Of a stretch of DNA of 60,399 nt, positions 2,825 to 50,485 are shown piece after piece (within the stretch, counting starts at the first letter, position 1; every line of letters starts with the position of its first letter). Origin of the DNA: Bacteroidales bacterium. GTDB lineage: Bacteria; Bacteroidota; Bacteroidia; Bacteroidales; F082. The stretch lies in contig JAZKYG010000020.1 of NCBI GenBank assembly GCA_045612025.1, positions 1-60,399 on the forward strand, in the 5' to 3' direction. The notes under the pieces are model-generated. The model searched no databases. It was given only the letters and a program-made list of their open reading frames with translations, and was not told the origin of the DNA. A program made the position numbers and the translations under genes.

Positions 2825-3556
2825 ATGTATCAATTCAACAACGACTACAACCAACAAGTGATGTCACAAGAGATGACAAAATCATTTGTTTCTAATGTAT
2901 TTTTATGGATGTTTGCAGCGCTCGGTTTGACAGCAGCTACTGCATTTTTATTCGGCACAAGCGAAAACCTGATGAGCATGCTGATTACAGTATCACCTGA
3001 AGGTTACGCTAAGACATCAATATTAGGCTGGATCGTGACATTCGCTCCTTTAATCATAGTGTTCACTATGTCAGCTGGCATCAATAGAATGTCAGTACAA
3101 AAGACAGTGTTATTATATGTCATCTATTCCATCTTGATGGGCATGAGCCTCAGCTTCATCTTCTGGGCTTACACAACAGCATCTATCTTCAAGACATTCA
3201 TCATTGCAGCTGGCATGTTCGGCGTGATGGCAGTATTAGGATACACAACAAGCACCGATTTGACAAAATTCGGTTCATTCCTTTTCATGGCTTTGATAGG
3301 CGTCATCATCGCTACATTAGTCAACTTCTTCATGCACAGCGCAAGATTAGACTATATCATCAGCATCGCTGGCGTGCTCATCTTCACAGGATTGACAGCC
3401 TTCGACGTACAGAAGATTAAACAAATAGGAAACGCAGGTATCAACGACGGCGATGTCATGGCAAAAATCACTATTCATGCAGCCTTGACACTCTACCTCG
3501 ACTTCTTGAACCTCTTCTTATATTTATTAAGATTCTTCGGCAACTCAAGAGATTGA
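2825..3556 (+). CDS. Bax inhibitor-1/YccA family membrane protein
   Basis: Seven hydrophobic helices and a C-terminal YLDFLNLFLYLLRFFG, which is typical of the BI-1/YccA family. Confidence 0.85.
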   Translation: MYQFNNDYNQQVMSQEMTKSFVSNVFLWMFAALGLTAATAFLFGTSENLMSMLITVSPEGYAKTSILGWIVTFAPLIIVFTMSAGINRMSVQKTVLLYVIYSILMGMSLSFIFWAYTTASIFKTFIIAAGMFGVMAVLGYTTSTDLTKFGSFLFMALIGVIIATLVNFFMHSARLDYIISIAGVLIFTGLTAFDVQKIKQIGNAGINDGDVMAKITIHAALTLYLDFLNLFLYLLRFFGNSRD

Positions 3557-3638
3557 TTCAATTCATAATTCATAATGCATAATTCATAATCAATTATACA
3601 TTGTGCATTGAATAAATATTAACTAAATTAAACTATAA

Positions 3639-4639: not shown

Positions 4640-6232
4640 ATGAAAAAACAACCTCTGATGCCGTTAATATTTTCCATTATACTTGCTGTAGGCGTGATGT
4701 TCGGCATATATATAGCAAAATCTAATGGAATAGCCACTGCACCCAAAAACAGTGACGATCTTTCATATATCAACGATGTATTTTCTTTGATAGACAAAGA
4801 ATATGTCGATACTATAAACATCAAAGACCTTCAGATAAAAGCCGTCACTCATGTCCTTGAGTCGATGGATCCTCATAGCGAATATATCAAGCCTGAGGTA
4901 CTTGAAGAAGTCAACGACAACCTTCATGGCAGTTTCCACGGCATCGGAGTTTCATTCAGAATAGAGAAAGACACAATCACTATCATCAATACCATCAAAG
5001 GCGGTCCTTCTGAAAAAGTGGGAATACTCGCCGGCGACAGAATAGTGTATGTTGGTGACACCCTCGTCGCAGGAACGAAAGTCACAAACAAAGATGCGAT
5101 GCGTCTCCTCAAAGGTCCTAAGAAGACAAAGGTTGACGTCAAGATAAAACGTCGTGGCATTGATGAGCTGCTCGACTTCACCATCATCAGAGACGTGATA
5201 CCGACTCACAGCGTCGACGTGGCTTATATGATTGACGATAACATCGGTTTCATCAAGATGACAAAATTCTCTGCCACCACGCATAAGGAATTCGTCGAGG
5301 CAGTGAGAAAGCTTAAGTCGGAAGGCATGACACAGCTCATCCTAGACCTGAGAGACAACACCGGAGGTTATCTGGGAGAAGCAGTAGGCGTCGTTGATGA
5401 GATACTCACCGACAACAACTTAATCGTATATACCGAAGGTGAACATCGTGAGAGATCATATCTATTCTCACGTCACAGAGGCTTATGGGAAGACAAAGAT
5501 GTAGTCGTCCTCATCAATGAAGGTTCAGCCAGCGCAAGCGAGATCGTGGCAGGTGCTCTCCAAGATAACGACAGAGGCACCATCATCGGACGCCGTTCCT
5601 TCGGCAAAGGCCTAGTCCAAGAACAATTCGACCTTGGAGAAAACGGAGCATTACGTCTGACAGTAGCGCGCTACTACACCCCAACAGGTCGCTGCATACA
5701 AAAACCTTTCTCAGGTAATAAAGAAGAATATATGCTTGAAGAATACACACGTTATGCGACTGGTGAGATGTTTAATATCGACAGCATACACTTCGCCGAT
5801 TCGTTGAAATATATAACTCCTAAAGGTAAAGTAGTCTATGGCGGCGGTGGCATCATGCCTGACATTTATGTGCCTCTGGAAAACGACAGCACTCATTATT
5901 TCTTCAATAAGATGGCAAACAGCGGAATCTTGTTCCAATATGCTTTCGACTATGCCGACTCACACCGCAAGGAGATATTAAGTTATGGCAATGTTGAAAC
6001 ATTCAACGACAATTTCATCTTCACAGATGCTATGTTCAATGAATTGATGCGTCGTACAGAAGAAAAGAAAATCATCGGAAATGATGCCGATAAGGCTAAA
6101 GCCAGAGAACTCTCAGAACCATTGTTCAAGACATACGTGGCAAGAGACGTCTTCGGCGATGAAGCGTTTTATGTTCTTTACGAACCAATGGATGAGATAC
6201 TTCAGAAAGCCATTGAGGTGTTACAAGATTAA
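4640..6232 (+). CDS. Carboxy-terminal processing peptidase, family S41, with a PDZ domain
   Basis: N-terminal membrane anchor, a PDZ-like segment (GGPSEKVGILAGDRIVYVGD), and LDLRDNTGGY and GSASASEI motifs. Confidence 0.9.
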   Translation: MKKQPLMPLIFSIILAVGVMFGIYIAKSNGIATAPKNSDDLSYINDVFSLIDKEYVDTINIKDLQIKAVTHVLESMDPHSEYIKPEVLEEVNDNLHGSFHGIGVSFRIEKDTITIINTIKGGPSEKVGILAGDRIVYVGDTLVAGTKVTNKDAMRLLKGPKKTKVDVKIKRRGIDELLDFTIIRDVIPTHSVDVAYMIDDNIGFIKMTKFSATTHKEFVEAVRKLKSEGMTQLILDLRDNTGGYLGEAVGVVDEILTDNNLIVYTEGEHRERSYLFSRHRGLWEDKDVVVLINEGSASASEIVAGALQDNDRGTIIGRRSFGKGLVQEQFDLGENGALRLTVARYYTPTGRCIQKPFSGNKEEYMLEEYTRYATGEMFNIDSIHFADSLKYITPKGKVVYGGGGIMPDIYVPLENDSTHYFFNKMANSGILFQYAFDYADSHRKEILSYGNVETFNDNFIFTDAMFNELMRRTEEKKIIGNDADKAKARELSEPLFKTYVARDVFGDEAFYVLYEPMDEILQKAIEVLQD

Positions 6233-6315
6233 AATCTCAGAATCTCAGAACCTCAAAATCTCAGAAACTAGAATTTTGAGATTTTGAGGTTCTGAATTTT
6301 TGAATTCTAAAAAAA
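6233..6315. repeat. 8-nt period tandem array (AATCTCAG / AACCTCAA) followed by its inverted copy
   Basis: AATCTCAGAATCTCAGAACCTCAAAATCTCAGAAA is followed by the complementary array. The element fills the gap between the convergent protease and atpG genes. Confidence 0.9.
6245..6295. terminator. Bidirectional hairpin between convergent genes
   Basis: A perfect 19-bp stem (6245..6263 pairs with 6277..6295) with a 13-nt loop and A/T-rich flanks on both sides. Confidence 0.6.
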
Positions 6316-7197
6316 CTAAGATTCTTTCAAAGCATTCGCTCCGCTGATAATCTCAACGAGTTCGTTGGTGATAGCAGACTGACGTGCTTTGTTATACGAT
6401 ATATTAAGCTCTTTCAAGAGTTCTGTCGCATTGTCTGTCGCCTGTGTCATTGAAATCATACGAGCGCCTTGTTCTGAAGCGAAGCTATCCAACAATATCT
6501 TATAAACCTGTAGTTTAAGCGACTTCGGAATCATAACACTCAACAGTTCTTCCTTATTCGGTTGGTAAATATAATCAACCTCAGACTCGGACTGTTGTCT
6601 GTTGTCTGTTATCTGTTGACCAACAATTGGCAAAAACTGCTCCTTCACCAGCACCTGTGTCGCGGCGTTTTTAAACTGATTATATACAAATACTATCTTA
6701 TCGTATTTATTCTCATCGAAGTCTTTCATCAGACGCTCAGCAAAAGCAGCAGCGTTCTCGTATGTCAAGTCATCCAGCAAGACATTCTCGTTGCCGATGA
6801 CAGGATATTTCCTAAACTTAAGAGCATCTTCAACCTTAGAGCCGACACATAAAATGTCAACGCAATTATTATCAAATAATGTCTGATATTCGTCTTTGAT
6901 AAGGCTTATCGTCTCACGGATGACATTGGCGTTGAACGTACCACACAATCCCTTATTAGAAGATATCGAGACAATGAGAACCTTATTGGCCTTTGTCTGT
7001 TGTCTGTTGTCTGTTGTCTGTTGACCGTTTATCCTTTCAAGAATCTCGCTGAACTTCTCGGCATACGGGCGTAATGCCATGATGGCATTCTGCGACTTAC
7101 GCAGTTTGGATGCTGCCACCATCTTCATGGCACTCGTAATCTGCTTCGTCGAGTTGACAGATTCTATCCTCGTCCTGACTTCTTTTAAGTTGGCCAT
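6316..7197 (-). CDS. atpG: F-type ATP synthase gamma subunit
   Basis: MANLKEVRTRIESVNSTKQITSAMKMVAASKLRK, and NKARQSAITNELVEIISGA at the C-terminus. Confidence 0.95.
   Translation of the reverse strand: MANLKEVRTRIESVNSTKQITSAMKMVAASKLRKSQNAIMALRPYAEKFSEILERINGQQTTDNRQQTKANKVLIVSISSNKGLCGTFNANVIRETISLIKDEYQTLFDNNCVDILCVGSKVEDALKFRKYPVIGNENVLLDDLTYENAAAFAERLMKDFDENKYDKIVFVYNQFKNAATQVLVKEQFLPIVGQQITDNRQQSESEVDYIYQPNKEELLSVMIPKSLKLQVYKILLDSFASEQGARMISMTQATDNATELLKELNISYNKARQSAITNELVEIISGANALKES
6591..6620 (-). repeat. Heptamer tandem repeat (CAACAGA x4, degenerate) in frame inside atpG
   Basis: The coding strand GTCAACAGATAACAGACAACAGACAACAGT encodes GQQITDNRQQS. Confidence 0.9.
6994..7025 (-). 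repeat. Heptamer tandem repeat (CAACAGA x4.5) in frame inside atpG
   Basis: The coding strand GGTCAACAGACAACAGACAACAGACAACAGACA encodes GQQTTDNRQQT. Confidence 0.9.
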
Positions 7198-10275: not shown

Positions 10276-10308
10276 AACTTATAATTTTATAAAGTTTATA
10301 TTTCTTAT

Positions 10309-10340
10309 GTCAACGGACTACAGACCACAGTCAACAGTCC
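10309..10340. repeat. Intergenic copy of the TCAACRG/ACAACAG heptamer family
   Basis: GTCAACGGACTACAGACCACAGTCAACAGTCC, located between atpE and atpB. Confidence 0.8.
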
Positions 10341-10343
10341 TAA

Positions 10344-11459
10344 TTAACCATGTTTCGCTGCCATTCCAAAATATATTGAAGACAACAGAGTAAACACGTA
10401 TGCCTGTATGAATGCCACCAGCACCTCAAGGCAGTCGGCAAAGACCGCGAGCAACAATGACAGCACCGACATTCCCGCACCTGCCATAGCGCTCATCTCT
10501 CCCAAGATAAATATCATACAGATGAAACCTAGCACCACGATATGACCAGCTGTGATATTAGCAAAGAGACGTACCGCCAAGACGAACGGCTTGATAAAAC
10601 AACCGACGACTTCAATGATAGGCATCAATGGCAAAGGGAACTTCAACCACCAAGGCACGCCAGGTGTGTTGAATATATCTTCATAATAATGTTTCGAACC
10701 AGTGAAATTAGTAATGAGGAAGGTAAACAAGGCAAGCACTGCTGTCACCGCTATGTTTCCTGTGATGTTTGTTCCAAAAGGGAAGAACGGTATCAATCCC
10801 AAGAGGTTATTAAAAAATATAAAGAAAAATACAGTTAACAGATAAGGGAAATATCGTTCATAATGTTCGCCGATATTAGGTTTGGCGATGTCATCGCGCA
10901 CATAGAGTATGATTGGTTCCACGAGAGCCTGTATTCCTTTCGGGGCCTTCTCGCCTCTCTCACGATAGCCTTTAGCGACAAGAAGGAAAATCACGACAAG
11001 AAGAGTGCATGAGATAAACAATCCGCATACGGTCTTAGTTATAGAGATATCCAATGGCTTTATATGCGTTCCATCATCCATCACTCTCACCACCTTGCCT
11101 TTATGGCTTCCTTCTTCAGGGATTTCAAAGACGACATCATCGCCGTGCTTGTCTTTGGTATGATACTGATGTTCATGATGTAAATGCTTAGATGAAAAAG
11201 TATAAAACTCGCCTTCGCTATAAACTATTATCGGCAGATAGACACTGATATGCTTTCCTTTCCAAGTACATATATGCCAGTCATAAGAATCCAAAATATG
11301 GTCGAAGATAAGTTCTCCAGCATCAAATTTCTCTTCTGCCTCATATTCACTATCGTTTGCAAAAACCCTAACAGGTGTTAAGATTGTAAAACTTATTACG
11401 AACAAACAAGTTATAAGATTGAATATATATTTTCTAACAAACGATACGTTGTTTTTCAT
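10344..11459 (-). CDS. atpB: F-type ATP synthase subunit a, with an N-terminal extension
   Basis: C-terminal LAVRLFANITAGH with the essential Arg. I chose ATG 11459 (MKNNVSFVRKY...), a signal/anchor-like start, over the longer ORF-track start at 11513. Confidence 0.9.
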   Translation of the reverse strand: MKNNVSFVRKYIFNLITCLFVISFTILTPVRVFANDSEYEAEEKFDAGELIFDHILDSYDWHICTWKGKHISVYLPIIVYSEGEFYTFSSKHLHHEHQYHTKDKHGDDVVFEIPEEGSHKGKVVRVMDDGTHIKPLDISITKTVCGLFISCTLLVVIFLLVAKGYRERGEKAPKGIQALVEPIILYVRDDIAKPNIGEHYERYFPYLLTVFFFIFFNNLLGLIPFFPFGTNITGNIAVTAVLALFTFLITNFTGSKHYYEDIFNTPGVPWWLKFPLPLMPIIEVVGCFIKPFVLAVRLFANITAGHIVVLGFICMIFILGEMSAMAGAGMSVLSLLLAVFADCLEVLVAFIQAYVFTLLSSIYFGMAAKHG

Positions 11460-29520: not shown

Positions 29521-29550
29521 TGCACAATGCATAATTCATAATGCATAATT
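29521..29550. repeat. CATAATK heptamer array
   Basis: TGCACAATGCATAATTCATAATGCATAATT. Confidence 0.85.
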
Positions 29551-38287: not shown

Positions 38288-39127
38288 ATGATAAAAATAA
38301 CAGATAAATCTGGATTGATACTCGAAGGTGGAGGCATGAGAGGTGTCTTCACCTCCGGAGTATTGGACTGTTTCATGGACAATGGGATACGTTTCCCTTA
38401 CACAATAGGCGTCAGCGCCGGCGCATGCAACGGTCTGTCTTACATCTCAAACCAAAGAGGCAGAGCCAAGTTCAGCAACATCGATTTGCTGGAACAATAT
38501 AATTACATCGGAATAAAACACCTCTTGAAGAAAGGCAATATCATGGATTTTGACTTGCTGTTCCACACCTTCCCTAACGAAATCATTCCATACGACTACG
38601 AACGATTGGCAAATTATGAAGGTCATTACGAGATGGTTACAACGAGTTGTAAGACCGGCAAAGCCTGTTATTTTGAAGAAAAGAAAAATCCTGAGAGAGT
38701 CATTGACATTGTGAAGGCCTCAAGCAGCCTTCCTTTCGTATGCCCTATATCATACGTCGACGGCGAACCAATGTTAGACGGCGGCATCGCCAGTTCCATT
38801 CCAATCATGCGGGCAAGAGAGTTGGGCTACGACAACAACGTCGTGGTTCTCACTCGCAACAGAGGATATCGCAAGACAGAGAAAGACATGAAGTACGTTT
38901 CTCTGTTCTACAAGAAATATCCTGCGATGCAAGAAGCTATCAGAAATCGCAACAGAATATACAATGAAGAAATAAGTCTAATTGAAAGGCTGGAAGACGC
39001 TGGAGAAATCATCGTCATCCGCCCTCAGAAACCAATAGAAGTCGACAGAATGGAACGCGACAGCAAGAAACTGATCGCACTATACGAAGAAGGATATAAT
39101 CTGGCAATGAGAACTTTAGAATTTTAG
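38288..39127 (+). CDS. Patatin-like phospholipase
   Basis: GGGMRG oxyanion motif, GVSAGA nucleophile elbow, and DGG. Confidence 0.88.
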   Translation: MIKITDKSGLILEGGGMRGVFTSGVLDCFMDNGIRFPYTIGVSAGACNGLSYISNQRGRAKFSNIDLLEQYNYIGIKHLLKKGNIMDFDLLFHTFPNEIIPYDYERLANYEGHYEMVTTSCKTGKACYFEEKKNPERVIDIVKASSSLPFVCPISYVDGEPMLDGGIASSIPIMRARELGYDNNVVVLTRNRGYRKTEKDMKYVSLFYKKYPAMQEAIRNRNRIYNEEISLIERLEDAGEIIVIRPQKPIEVDRMERDSKKLIALYEEGYNLAMRTLEF

Positions 39128-39185
39128 AACTTTAGAACTTTAAAACTTTAGAATTCTAGAGTTTTAGAGTTTTAGAGTTCTAAAA
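39110..39185. repeat. 8-nt period AGAACTTT/AGAGTTTT arrays in inverted orientation around GAATTC
   Basis: The left array begins inside the patatin CDS and encodes its last residues, RTLEF*. The two arms match at about 28 of 33 positions and could form a long hairpin spanning 39124..39185. Confidence 0.9.
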
Positions 39186-43192: not shown

Positions 43193-43205
43193 AATTGCAA
43201 AGATA

Positions 43206-43239
43206 GAAAAAGGCAAAAGGCAAAAGGCAAAAGACAAAA
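43206..43239. repeat. AGGCAAA heptamer array
   Basis: AAAAAGGCAAAAGGCAAAAGGCAAAAGACAAAAG. A related tract lies at 46476..46505. Confidence 0.85.
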
Positions 43240-43312
43240 GATTTTTTTGCCAACGCCTAATTAATGAGACGCATCAATGTTTGTTTATTTTTATCGTATC
43301 ATTGATACGTCT

Positions 43313-44026
43313 CTACAAATCATTCCTTACTCCTAATTTATCAAAAGTAAATCCTCTTTCCACATAATATTCAAGGACTTTTGTAAGTGCTGGAATCATA
43401 TTGTTTACTGCTTTTTCGCTGTCGTGAAAGACGATGATACTTCCGTCGTCGGCATTTTTTATCACATTATTAAAACAATCCTCCTGACTTAAAGACTTAT
43501 CCCAATCGTAAGATATCACAGTCCAAGCCACTATTTTAAATTCTGGAATTCTAGAACTCTCGAACTTTAGAAGTTCAGATTTATCTTTAATTTCTAAACT
43601 TCTGAGGTTCTGAGATTTTGAATTTCTGAGCTTTTTAATCAATCTGATTTGTGATGATTTGATCCTTCCATGAGGCGGACGGAAAAGAGGCGATTGTATC
43701 AAAGCGTCGGCTTGTTCTACGGAATTTATGTAATCTTTGGTTTTTGTCTTCCATCCTCTTTCGTGATTGAAAGTATGATTTCCGACGGCATGACCTTCAT
43801 TCTTAATCAGTTCGAAAGTATCTTTATATTTATTAACATTATTGCCGATGCAGAAGAAAGTCGCTTTAGCGTTAAATTTCTTTAAGATTTCAAGAACCTG
43901 CGGAGTTATAGTTGGATGCGGACCGTCATCGAAAGTGAGGTAAAGTTTTTTCTCACCCTTAGGCATTTCCCAAAGAAATGAAGGATAGAACAGTCTTAAT
44001 ATTTTCGGAGTCGTGATGAGGCGCAT
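43313..44026 (-). CDS. Polysaccharide deacetylase (NodB/CE4 family) carrying an in-frame repeat insertion
   Basis: TFDDGP, HAVGNHTFNH and LFRPPHG motifs. Its ATG lies 2 nt after the stop of the upstream kinase gene. Confidence 0.88.
   Translation of the reverse strand: MRLITTPKILRLFYPSFLWEMPKGEKKLYLTFDDGPHPTITPQVLEILKKFNAKATFFCIGNNVNKYKDTFELIKNEGHAVGNHTFNHERGWKTKTKDYINSVEQADALIQSPLFRPPHGRIKSSQIRLIKKLRNSKSQNLRSLEIKDKSELLKFESSRIPEFKIVAWTVISYDWDKSLSQEDCFNNVIKNADDGSIIVFHDSEKAVNNMIPALTKVLEYYVERGFTFDKLGVRNDL
43538..43627 (-). repeat. Intergenic-type repeat (TTCTGAG/GAACTTTAG/TCTAGAAC families) embedded in frame in the NodB CDS
   Basis: The plus strand reads ...TTCTAGAACTCTCGAACTTTAGAAGTTCAG...TTCTGAGGTTCTGAGATTTTGAATTTCTGAG. 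It encodes RNSKSQNLRSLEIKDKSELLKFESSRIPEF, between the RPPHG motif and the VAW..DW motif. Confidence 0.85.
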
Positions 44027-46351: not shown

Positions 46352-46423
46352 TACCCCCACCGGGAATCGAACCCAGATTTAAAGTTTAGGAAACTTTCGT
46401 TCTATCCGTTGAACTATAGGGGC
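46352..46423 (-). tRNA. tRNA-Arg (anticodon CCU)
   Basis: I folded the reverse complement GCCCCTATAGTTCAACGGATAGAACGAAAGTTTCCTAAACTTTAAATCTGGGTTCGATTCCCGGTGGGGGTA by hand into a cloverleaf. The anticodon stem is AAAGT/ACTTT, the loop is TTCCTAA, the T-loop is TTCGATT, and no CCA is encoded. Confidence 0.85.
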
Positions 46424-46430
46424 ATTTTTA

Positions 46431-46505
46431 ATTCATAATTCATAATGCATAATGCATAATTGAAATGAATAATTACCTTTAGACTTTGGACTTTTGCCTT
46501 TAGCC
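46431..46505. repeat. CATAATK heptamer array followed by an AGGCAAA-family tract
   Basis: ATTCATAATTCATAATGCATAATGCATAATTG, then CCTTTAGACTTTGGACTTTTGCCTTTAGCC. Confidence 0.8.
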
Positions 46506-48943: not shown

Positions 48944-49432
48944 ATGAAACATTTAGAAAAGATTTACGATAAGATTTTAAACAAGGAATCTATTGAAGAG
49001 AAGTTGAATTTGTGGCGTAAGGAAGGAAAAACGATAGTCTTTTCAAACGGATGCTTCGATATTTTGCATCGCGGTCATGTTGAATATCTTTCTAAAGCAG
49101 CAGACCTTGGCGATGTGTTGATAATCGGTTTAAACACAGATGCTTCAGTAAAAAGAATCAAAGGTCCATCACGACCAGTCAATGATGAAAAAGCACGCGC
49201 TGTAGTGCTGGCAGCACTTGAATTTGTCGATGCAATAATGTTTTTTGAGGAAGACACTCCTTATGATTTAATCAAATACGTACAACCTGACATACTTGTC
49301 AAAGGCAAAGATTACAAAGCAGAAGACATCGTCGGTTACGACATCGTTACTAACAAAGGTGGAAAAGTAGAGACAATAGAATTAGTTGAAGGGTTTTCTA
49401 CGACGAAAACGATTGAGAAAATGAAATGGTAA
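48944..49432 (+). CDS. D-glycero-beta-D-manno-heptose-1-phosphate adenylyltransferase-like cytidylyltransferase (RfaE domain II type)
   Basis: [32 protein letters not shown] and ILVKGKDY. Confidence 0.85.
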
Positions 49433-49497
49433 TGTTGACAAAAATAGTTGGTAATTGAGAAACAAAAAGACCTCATTTTTAAAGATTACAACAGTAT

Positions 49498-49717
49498 TAG
49501 TCCCGTTAGGGACGATAGTTTCCAGGCAGGTATGAAGAGCGTAGCTCGGAATGCCTGCATAAAGATCGGATTTGATAAGAGTGCCGAAGGTACGACAGAA
49601 AAATCAAACTCAATTCTGTCGCACCTTCGGCGCTTTGATTAATTTTTAAACCTGTTTGCAGGGATTTCGCGCTTTGCGCTTCATCACCTGCCTATGAACT
49701 GCCGCTCCTACGGAGCT
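49498..49717 (+). ncRNA. Candidate structured RNA or long imperfect palindrome with 6S-like architecture; identity unproven
   Basis: A GC-richer tract. The terminal stem (49580..49597 with 49615..49632) has 16 Watson-Crick pairs and 1 G.U. An internal A/U-rich bubble follows, and then outer arms at 49524..49558 and 49656..49691, and 49498..49513 and 49700..49717. The G.U asymmetry favours the + strand. Confidence 0.3.
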
Positions 49718-49757
49718 GATTTGAGTATTCCTTTATCTCCTTATTTTTTGACATAAA

Positions 49758-49793
49758 AAATAACTTTGACGAAAACATTTTCATCAAAGTTAT
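49758..49793 (+). terminator. Hairpin followed by a T-rich tract
   Basis: AATAACTTTGA pairs with TCAAAGTTATT (11-bp stem), followed by ATATTGTTTT. Confidence 0.4.
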
Positions 49794-49861
49794 TATATTG
49801 TTTTATATATTAGTTAGTTACAGAGGTTTTACCAAGCATTTTGGGCAATTGCCCCCAAAAT

Positions 49862-49889
49862 TAAGGTGACTTCTATTTAGAAATCACCT
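49862..49889 (-). terminator. Hairpin immediately downstream of the beta-helix gene stop
   Basis: AAGGTGACTTCTATTTAGAAATCACCTT, followed by AATTTTGGGGG on the minus strand. Confidence 0.45.
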
Positions 49890-49896
49890 TTTATTA

Positions 49897-50463
49897 TTAT
49901 ACTAATATTCCTTGCATGCTTCCCGAGCCCTGGACTTGCAGCCCTTTTGCTGAAACGCCTCTTAGCATGGCGGAGCCGCCAATTCGGCAGTCTTCCAGGT
50001 CCGAGTCCATAATTTTGGCCCAGTCCGATATTATAGACTCTCCGTGTACGTCCGTTTGGCCTTCTATCTCCGGCCGTCCGAATGCTTTAGAGTGCTCGCG
50101 CACTTTCGCGAAGCCCTTTATCTGAGCTACGCCACCTATTGTCGCGTTATCCATGACCTGGGCGTTTCCGAATATCGTCGCTTCGCAAGCTATTGTCGCC
50201 TTCCCGCGTACTATCGCGTTCCCGTATACCGCCGCAGAGTCGTACACCGTCGCGTTATCCAGGACCCTCGCGTTATCCAGGACCCTCGCGTTCCCATATA
50301 CCGCAGCTTCTCCGCCTACCCAGCAGCCGCCTTCGTGGGACAGATTGCTCTCGTTCTCAATGTAGCCGCCAAGTTCATTTGTTGACGTGCTTTTTATTCT
50401 GTAGACCTTAGTCTTGAATAGTCCCACCTCTTTAAAGTCTTCTTTTATTATCTCGTATTTCAT
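49897..50463 (-). CDS. Beta-helix (hexapeptide-like) repeat protein of unknown function; probably acquired horizontally
   Basis: Repeats VYGNARVLDNARVLDNATVYDSAAVYGNAIVRGKATI...FGNAQVMDNATIGGVAQI. A strong AGGAGG site (50474..50479) lies 10 nt before ATG 50463. The gene is visibly GC-richer than its neighbours. Confidence 0.65.
   Translation of the reverse strand: MKYEIIKEDFKEVGLFKTKVYRIKSTSTNELGGYIENESNLSHEGGCWVGGEAAVYGNARVLDNARVLDNATVYDSAAVYGNAIVRGKATIACEATIFGNAQVMDNATIGGVAQIKGFAKVREHSKAFGRPEIEGQTDVHGESIISDWAKIMDSDLEDCRIGGSAMLRGVSAKGLQVQGSGSMQGILV
50251..50286 (-). repeat. Perfect 18-bp tandem duplication inside the beta-helix CDS
   Basis: CGCGTTATCCAGGACCCT occurs twice, duplicating one NARVLD hexapeptide turn. 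Confidence 0.95.
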
Positions 50464-50485
50464 TGTGCTATTTCCTCCTTTTATT

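Follow-up and report, generated by a model that had tools for sequence, protein, structure and literature searches.

Y1 transposases carrying the HUH motif, among them the TnpA proteins of IS608 and ISDra2 and the TnpA-REP protein of Escherichia coli, bind small imperfect hairpins in single-stranded DNA (ssDNA), read a short adjacent motif, and cut and rejoin the DNA. Most work on systems that pair such an enzyme with repetitive extragenic palindromic (REP) sequences, the REPIN-RAYT systems, has been done in Proteobacteria. One group of Y1 enzymes, TnpA-Y1 subclass 1.2, is listed without a REP and generally without IS200-type terminal structures; it is delimited by DH[IV]H, WQ, and Y---Q--HH motifs, a length of about 148 amino acids (aa), and a host among the Cyanobacteria or Bacteroidetes (Quentin et al. 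2018, PMC6006769). Here we analyse a 60,399-nt stretch of a Bacteroidales genome (contig JAZKYG010000020.1 of assembly GCA_045612025.1), hereafter the window, in which a long hairpin (49498-49717) lies in an intergenic gap. We propose, with a probability of roughly 0.8, that this hairpin is a gene-less REPIN-like or MITE-like (miniature inverted-repeat transposable element) inverted doublet of a compound repeat of about 108 nt, derived from a Y1-transposase cassette. In related Bacteroidales the cassette consists of two inward-facing repeat units around a gene for a 151-aa HUH/Y1 (IS200-like) protein, and the window copy would be that cassette minus the gene; with the gene removed, the units abut across a 13-nt loop and can therefore fold back on each other. 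The sequence-only reading that had drawn attention to the hairpin offered a non-autonomous mobile or paired REP-like element as one of its options, and it is this option that the comparisons support, specifically as an inverted doublet of a Y1-flanking repeat.

The repeat unit was defined by aligning 37 diverse left halves of the family, which gave a length of 108 nt. The unit opens with a 5-bp hairpin (hp1) and the tag GACAG; next come a larger arm hairpin, whose inner stem is closed by GNA, and a spacer that varies and measures about 22 nt; hp2, a second hairpin of 5 bp, and GACAGAA complete it. Across the 37 units, compensatory changes are found at all five pairs of hp1 and at two pairs of the arm hairpin (GC exchanged with AU in 9 units, CG with UA or AU in 20 units); the invariance of hp2 in this alignment is by construction. 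A covariance model, R1, was built from left units only. Run on the window, R1 matches the left arm (49494-49600, + strand; 94.4 bits, E = 3e-17, this unit being in the training set) and, on the opposite strand and over the full model length, the right arm (49614-49722; 105.5 bits, E = 1.8e-19), and nothing else. Since a model made from left units only recognises the right half on the opposite strand, the hairpin is an inward-facing doublet of the 108-nt three-hairpin unit. Over 699 kb of related loci, R1 returned 147 strong units, among them 41 inward doublets with gaps of 0-29 nt (the range of the gene-less doublets, with modes at 0-5 and 12-15 nt), 49 single units, and 8 doublets with gaps of 466-583 nt.

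Read along the + strand, the left unit of the window copy starts with hp1 (GTCCC-GTTA-GGGAC) followed by the tag GATAG, where the family consensus has GACAG (49500-49518), and continues with the left arm hairpin (GCAGGTAT ... GAGC-GTA-GCTC ... ATGCCTGC; 49526-49558); both are given by local folds and by the compensatory changes described above, those of the arm hairpin falling at two pairs. At the inner end of the unit lies a core 20-mer, GTGCCGAAGGTACGACAGAA, made up of hp2 (GTGCC-GAA-GGTAC) and GACAGAA (49581-49600), which has exact matches elsewhere. The apical loop or spacer, AAATCAAACTCAA (49601-49613), occupies the place that the gene for the 151-aa protein takes in gene-bearing copies, as judged by comparison of the gaps. 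Beyond it, the inner end of the right unit consists of TTCTGTC and a counterpart of hp2, hp2' (GCACC-TTC-GGCGC; 49614-49633), recognised by its fold and by the R1 match. The right arm hairpin (GCAGGGAT ... GCGC-TTT-GCGC ... ATCACCTGC; 49658-49692) follows from the local fold of the minus-strand unit and the R1 alignment, and the tag CTGCC with the terminal hairpin hp1' (GCTCC-TAC-GGAGC; 49699-49716) from local folds.

Unbiased clustering of all open reading frames (ORFs) near copies of the family identified a single tightly linked gene, which encodes the 151-aa protein and lies at a median distance of 27 nt from the core. The protein matches Pfam Y1_Tnp (PF01797; E = 8.6e-17, 61.8 bits against a cut-off of 23), and the IS608 and ISDra2 TnpA entries of the PDB match it at E ~0.07 only. 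In 11 homologues of 150-151 aa, residues H55, H57, W95, Q96, Y115, Q119, H122, and H123 are invariant, giving DHVH as the HUH motif, WQ as the W motif, and Y---Q--HH as the Y motif, together with a conserved C-terminal tail. The enzyme carries the motifs of subclass 1.2, and its putative membership is by these motifs alone, not by the clustering or profile models of the authors who defined the subclass.

The position of this gene relative to the repeat is precise. In five loci of the comparison set (L093, L111, L135, L151, and L154) it lies exactly between GTGCCGAAGGTACGACAGAA and the TTCTGTC-hairpin, that is, at the position of the apical loop in the window. In L093, L135, L151, and L154 the core 20-mer is found 5-27 nt from the Y1 stop codon, and the TTCTGTC motif with hp2' precedes the start codon. 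Two inward-facing units bracket the gene in 8 of 8 complete Y1 loci, all of them from related genomes, with 466-583 nt between the units of gene-bearing copies. Both arms of the window hairpin are homologous to these flanks: the left unit and arm match the left flank of the L154 Y1 gene with 86.5% identity across 141 nt, and the right unit shows 74-78% identity to the right flanks in L154, L093, and L151. The apical loop of the window copy begins with AAATCAA, and so does the L154 sequence running across the Y1 stop codon. Repeat and enzyme also vary together. Y1 homologues that are 60-70% identical (L179, L181, and L184) keep the bracket, with matching changes in both arms (e.g. GGCAGAA/TTCTGCC and CAGCCGGGGG/CCCCCGGCTG).

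The step from cassette to hairpin is caught within one genome. On contig JAFZDU010000046.1 of the metagenome-assembled genome (MAG) RGIG7675, the paralogous loci L115 (1842-2088) and L135 (4436-5126) are 96-97% identical over more than 1 kb; what sets them apart is a clean deletion of 443 nt, which removes the Y1 ORF and leaves a gene-less foldback doublet. Units are locally clustered on this contig, with at least five more of them within a few kb. Past the right unit, the Y1 cassettes L093, L135, L151, and L154 have in common some 90 nt (TTATCCCA...AAGAAATAA) that, read towards the Y1 gene, contain a TAnnTTTG-type box (TATTTTTG); this stretch may be the Y1 promoter, which would put the right unit in the 5' untranslated region.

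By analogy with the enzymes of IS608 and ISDra2 and with TnpA-REP, the Y1 enzyme would recognise modules of a small hairpin followed by GACAG in ssDNA, for example in the lagging-strand template. These modules would be its likely recognition and cleavage sites, at which the strand would be cut and rejoined, and gene-less doublets might be mobilised or maintained in trans by the same enzyme.

The repeat family is dispersed. Sampling covered copies with the exact core 20-mer, which occurs in 59 public metagenome stretches and in 97 stretches of species-representative genomes, the genome hosts being nearly all uncultured MAGs of ruminant-gut Bacteroidales, Prevotellaceae, and Candidatus Limimorpha. 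Copies of the core number 12 in RGIG7675, 11 in RGIG7249, 10 in RGIG7592, and 4 in RGIG313 (JAFOBJ01), the closest relative, and the hairpin is single-copy within the window. A total of 153 of 166 copies lie outside long ORFs, with no orientation bias relative to neighbouring genes (66 vs 53; 57 vs 53). Copies are mosaic, being either full palindromes or left or right halves fused to unrelated sequence exactly at the core, and tandem copies occur as well (e.g. four in L031, about 290 nt apart). A scan of viral contigs with the core 20-mer gave 0 matches.

The full repeated segment in the window comprises the hairpin with about 30 nt to its left and about 14 nt to its right (49470-49731), and is 90-92% identical over 261-266 nt to copies in L102 and L134. 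L102, from MAG RGIG313, and L134, with two copies, thus carry paralogous copies of 49470-49731 whose outer flanks are unrelated. The left edge of the segment is fuzzy, as 49448-49499 is also common to left flanks in L173 (L173b) and L154. The contig of L134 (JAZQUH010000024.1, 1334 nt), whose two copies are 90-92% identical to the window element, has been assigned to an 'Alphaproteobacteria' MAG, most likely by mis-binning of Bacteroidales DNA. Copies in L155, L125, L160, L102, L134, and L173 have flanks of short degenerate tandem repeats (GTTCAGA/GTTCAAA, TTGACyTT, and CTCTAGTCC) which are inverted on the two sides, so that the predicted foldbacks exceed 300 nt.

A classical MITE, descended from an insertion sequence of the DDE type and equipped with terminal inverted repeats and a target-site duplication, would fit the long inverted arms of the element, its small size, its many copies, and its intergenic location. 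Such an origin appears extremely improbable, given that copies show no recurrent link to a DDE transposase (the Y1 gene is the only tightly linked gene), that no direct repeat flanks the ends of the element, and that units also occur singly or in tandem arrays, as is typical of REP-type repeats and bacterial interspersed mosaic elements. An IS110 bridge RNA, an integron attC site, a retron, and a TnpB/IscB guide RNA were considered and dropped, as no such gene recurs beside copies.

The gap that holds the hairpin extends from an rfaE-like cytidylyltransferase gene (48944-49432, + strand; product with a Pfam CTP_transf_like match) to a convergent beta-solenoid gene (49897-50463, - strand), and the hairpin starts 68 nt past the rfaE-like stop codon. 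The element has a GC content of 0.41-0.50 and its flanks one of 0.25-0.32, confirming an initial impression of a tract richer in GC than its surroundings. Orthologous loci from relatives that are about 89% identical at the nucleotide level were retrieved via homologues of the rfaE-like protein, and the hairpin is absent from this position in all of them (L001-L021). In L011-L019 the rfaE-like and rlmI-like genes abut directly, without 49433-50482, and in L001-L010 a leucine-rich-repeat gene stands between these two genes in place of that segment. The inserted context segment (49433-50482) comprises the hairpin, an AT-rich spacer, two terminator-like hairpins, and the beta-solenoid gene, which has 55-60% GC. 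The first of the terminator-like hairpins (49759-49794; arms of 17 nt that are 94% complementary) recurs downstream of the L154 and L093 Y1 cassettes, and the second (~49864-49890) is similar to a terminator that adjoins the L001 rlmI-like gene. The final 22 nt of the rfaE-like gene (49413-49434) are followed directly by an imperfect repeat of themselves (73%; 49435-49456), which lies at the left edge of the insertion.

The same insertion is found in L144, a locus of MAG RGIG313 from dairy-cattle colon. The whole segment is 95-100% identical to L144, and within it 49430-49900 is about 99.5% identical, whereas the flanking genes are only about 88% identical. Because the identity of the insertion lies far above that of the flanking genes, recent lateral exchange of the 49433-50482 segment is suggested. 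The window copy may have arrived as a 262-nt unit, with the same ends as in other flanks, or within the 1-kb segment.

An alternative history would have the Y1 cassette lose its ORF by deletion in situ and reach the window within the 1-kb segment, through homologous recombination or horizontal transfer, with no transposition of a doublet. We consider this unlikely, if far from negligible. It would account for the finding that about 30-50 nt on the left side of the hairpin, as well as the hairpin at 49755-49799 further downstream, also adjoin the gene-bearing L154 cassette, for the near-identity of the insertion to L144 against about 88% in the flanking genes, and for the AAATCAA retained in the loop, which spans the Y1 stop codon in L154; the pair L115/L135 shows that ORF deletions do occur. 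Copies with the same ends (49470-49731) in the unrelated flanks of L102 and L134 fit the movement of a defined unit instead, and the 12-15-nt loop class, shared by many doublets of different genomes, suggests one old deletion followed by spread.

The hairpin might also have been co-opted as a bidirectional terminator or stabiliser of messenger RNA (mRNA) between the convergent genes, a role compatible with its being a gene-less doublet. Its location shortly past the rfaE-like stop codon and between convergent genes, as well as the T-runs after the hairpin in several family members, agree with this, and REP elements are described as taking part in transcription termination and in the stabilisation of mRNA (Di Nocera et al. 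2013, PMC3733652). We nevertheless regard such a role as rather improbable, since the gap already has two separate terminator-like hairpins (49759-49794 and ~49864-49890), the T-tract after the hairpins of the window copy is weak, and relatives do without the hairpin. Any host effect, for instance on the termination or stability of the rfaE-like transcript upstream, would be putative and, if present at all, secondary.

A functional tie between the hairpin and the adjacent beta-solenoid gene was rejected. The sole close homologue of the beta-solenoid protein (P0121; 88% aa identity) lies in L022, a tightly packed phage-like contig of 1.2 kb, in another context and without the hairpin. Phage and plasmid collections, searched with 49433-49900 by BLAST, contained no meaningful match. 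Elsewhere in the window, several short stretches are 78-100% identical to intergenic sequence of the fetched loci (3553-3632, 6230-6267, 6987-7031, 10301-10346, 29524-29550, 39122-39185, 43197-43317, and 46427-46466), one of which adjoins a tRNA (46352-46423). These stretches probably represent further families of small dispersed repeats in these genomes.

Several observations weigh against derivation of the hairpin from a Y1 cassette as a mobile doublet. The Y1 protein scores below cut-off with two NCBIfam models, IS200 (40.5 bits, cut-off 55) and the REP-associated transposase model REP_Tyr_transpos (22.7 bits, cut-off 80), and the units have neither the GTAG tag nor the 20-40-nt size of classical REPs. 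No Y1 gene is present in the 60-kb window, and none was seen in the four loci sampled from RGIG313, the closest MAG; a trans-acting enzyme for the window copy is therefore only putative. A search through 186 loci uncovered neither a clean empty site for a doublet nor a target-site signature, and the window element itself sits inside the larger 1-kb insertion, which possibly stems from recombination. Copies within a genome are about 90-92% identical, and thus give no sign of very recent bursts. It is important to note that both the copy numbers and the impression of one Y1 gene per genome (at most one was seen per sampled MAG) are incomplete, because they derive from copies with the exact 20-mer only.

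The sequence-only reading had proposed, alongside a mobile element, a structured non-coding RNA (ncRNA) read from the + strand, either 6S-like or novel, and the fold on which it drew is real. As a + strand RNA, 49490-49725 has a minimum free energy (MFE) of -113.9 kcal/mol, compared with -62.5 +/- 4.4 for dinucleotide shuffles (z = -11.8; 0 of 200 as good); the - strand reaches -99.1 kcal/mol (z = -9.5), and ssDNA -56 kcal/mol (z = -8.3). The long imperfect palindrome of 49498-49717 is hence well beyond chance, and the stems had been drawn essentially correctly, with two corrections. The terminal stem is present and slightly longer than described (49578-49591 with 49622-49635, with one A.C mismatch, and 49593-49600 with 49614-49621), but it closes a loop of 13 nt (49601-49613), not 17. 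The outermost pairing of 49498-49513 with 49700-49717 is not recovered: a fold of the exact interval gives two local 5-bp hairpins instead, at 49500-49513 and 49704-49716, and this local form is backed by covariation in the family. The two mirror-image short ORFs (MKSVARNAC on the + strand, MKRKARNPC on the - strand) are, as had been supposed, a by-product of the symmetry.

The argument for a + strand RNA had been an excess of G.U pairs on that strand. In the MFE structures of the window copy the excess exists (9 on the + strand, 6 on the -) but is weaker than a hand count had indicated, and it does not extend to the family. Over 68 full copies the G.U totals are 486 vs 439, and no strand preference was detected (mean ddG of + minus - strand -1.8 kcal/mol, 39 copies vs 29, Wilcoxon p = 0.15), so that the argument fails at that level. 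Compensatory changes are present in the local hairpins and between distant clades. Within the sampled clade, the two arms of a copy are 0.83 similar to each other and 0.82 similar to the arms of other copies; as arms match their own partner no better than those of others, the long-range pairing is the result of inverted duplication and not independent evidence for an RNA, and the long-range 'covariation' within the clade is mostly shared sequence. The covariation that exists backs the small local hairpins, which are also present in single units.

An ncRNA gene is, on balance, very improbable. It would be in keeping with the very stable RNA fold, with a + strand fold of the window copy that is 11-15 kcal/mol better than the - strand fold, and with the hairpin and T-run, resembling an intrinsic terminator, in which L030, L048, L062, and L103 end. 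Set against this, Rfam (6S, 6S-Flavo, and Bacteroidales-1 included) gives no match even at E <= 10 in a search of 651 nt (49300-49950), and at gathering score yields only a single tRNA over the whole window. The element is absent from the orthologous locus of close relatives, and copies are many and mosaic, with neither family-wide strand asymmetry nor orientation bias relative to neighbours. On the point of many near-identical copies, which the initial reading had named among the outcomes that would refute an RNA gene, copies are indeed numerous genome-wide in related MAGs, but they have diverged. Upstream of the hairpin there is no sigma-70-type promoter in a scan that does not cover Bacteroidetes promoters, and no TAnnTTTG box by eye. 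Finally, both arms are homologous to transposase flanks.

The hairpin shares with 6S RNA (RF00013; 6S-Flavo, RF01685) a size of about 200 nt and the outline of an extended, irregular foldback whose middle pairs weakly, but differs from it in having no covariance-model match, in being multicopy, not syntenic, and absent in close relatives, and in that both of its arms copy a transposase-flanking repeat. For annotation, what looks strikingly like 6S RNA between two Bacteroidales genes is in this case repeat DNA, not an RNA gene, and covariance model R1 and the core 20-mer can serve to flag the family.

Elements of the IS200/IS605 group and their gene-less derivatives (palindrome-associated transposable elements, PATEs) likewise have a Pfam Y1_Tnp enzyme and small subterminal hairpins beside a short conserved motif, and PATEs, like the doublets here, retain both ends. 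The ends of IS200/IS605 elements are, however, asymmetric and not inverted repeats, whereas here the ends are inverted copies of one unit; moreover, there is no tnpB here, and several near-identical full copies were not seen in what is an incomplete sampling. Di Nocera et al. (2013, PMC3733652) describe TIRYTs and TIRtrons, Y1 genes within terminal inverted repeats whose copies form families, and CGTC-type REPs, which occur in Bacteroidetes, often as head-to-head dimers, and often with a TGTC tag, comparable to CTGTC here. TIRYTs mostly belong to subclass 2.1, with helix-turn-helix tails and GGGG[AT][CG]A[CG] repeats (PMC6006769). CGTC-type REPs are reported to have stems of 8-9 bp with AT at the base, loops of 4-5 nt, and no transposase, in contrast to the 5-bp stems and the transposase found here. 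We take the resemblance to TGTC/CGTC-tagged REPs and TIRtrons as a lead only. Subclass 2.6, a Bacteroidetes group with 'atypical secondary structures' (PMC6006769), has NHxH and YIH[QN]NP motifs and a length of 179 aa, and these motifs differ from those of the Y1 protein here.

The closest system is that of the REPIN-RAYTs, or REPtrons, of Pseudomonas and E. coli (Bertels & Rainey 2011, PMC3116915; Nunvar 2010, PMC2817692). Both have short palindromic intergenic repeats, present many times per genome and often as inverted doublets that fold into a long hairpin, and both have a low-copy HUH/Y1 gene inside inverted repeats, with repeat and enzyme changing together. They differ in the unit, which has 108 nt and three hairpins with 5-bp stems here and is a single REP of 20-40 nt there; in the tag, which is GACAG(AA) (CTGTC on the other strand) 3' of the hairpin here and GT[AG]G at the 5' foot there; in the enzyme, which has class 1 (IS200-like) motifs with Y---Q--HH here and is of class 2 with YIxxNP in RAYTs; and in copy number, which so far reaches tens here and not hundreds.

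With respect to TnpA-Y1 subclass 1.2, the enzyme agrees in length (151 aa vs a mean of 148), in its DHVH, WQ, and Y---Q--HH motifs, in a conserved C-terminal tail, in its Bacteroidetes host, and in an apparently low copy number (Quentin et al. 2018, PMC6006769). The difference from the subclass as published is that the gene here is bracketed by conserved compound inverted repeats and that gene-less copies are dispersed. The automated REP search of that study looked for a GT[AG]G tag and accepted no stem shorter than 7 bp, and would therefore have missed the present units; a limited literature search found no description of this repeat family in Bacteroidales. With the odds about even in our judgement, the orphan subclass 1.2 of Bacteroidetes and Cyanobacteria may own REPIN-type repeats of its own, in which 108-nt GACAG-tagged three-hairpin units flank the gene, shed it, and disperse as foldback doublets in ruminant-gut Bacteroidales. 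If so, subclass 1.2 would gain both a substrate and a life-style, and might connect with the REPs tagged TGTC/CGTC, which have no known transposase. A Y1 subclass without a known DNA partner is now tied to a defined candidate substrate, small hairpins followed by GACAG, and the step from gene-bearing cassette to gene-less doublet is documented inside one genome. Without opening a new category of system, a structurally different counterpart of REPIN-RAYT in abundant uncultured gut Bacteroidales would broaden the picture of how such repeats and their enzymes are organised.

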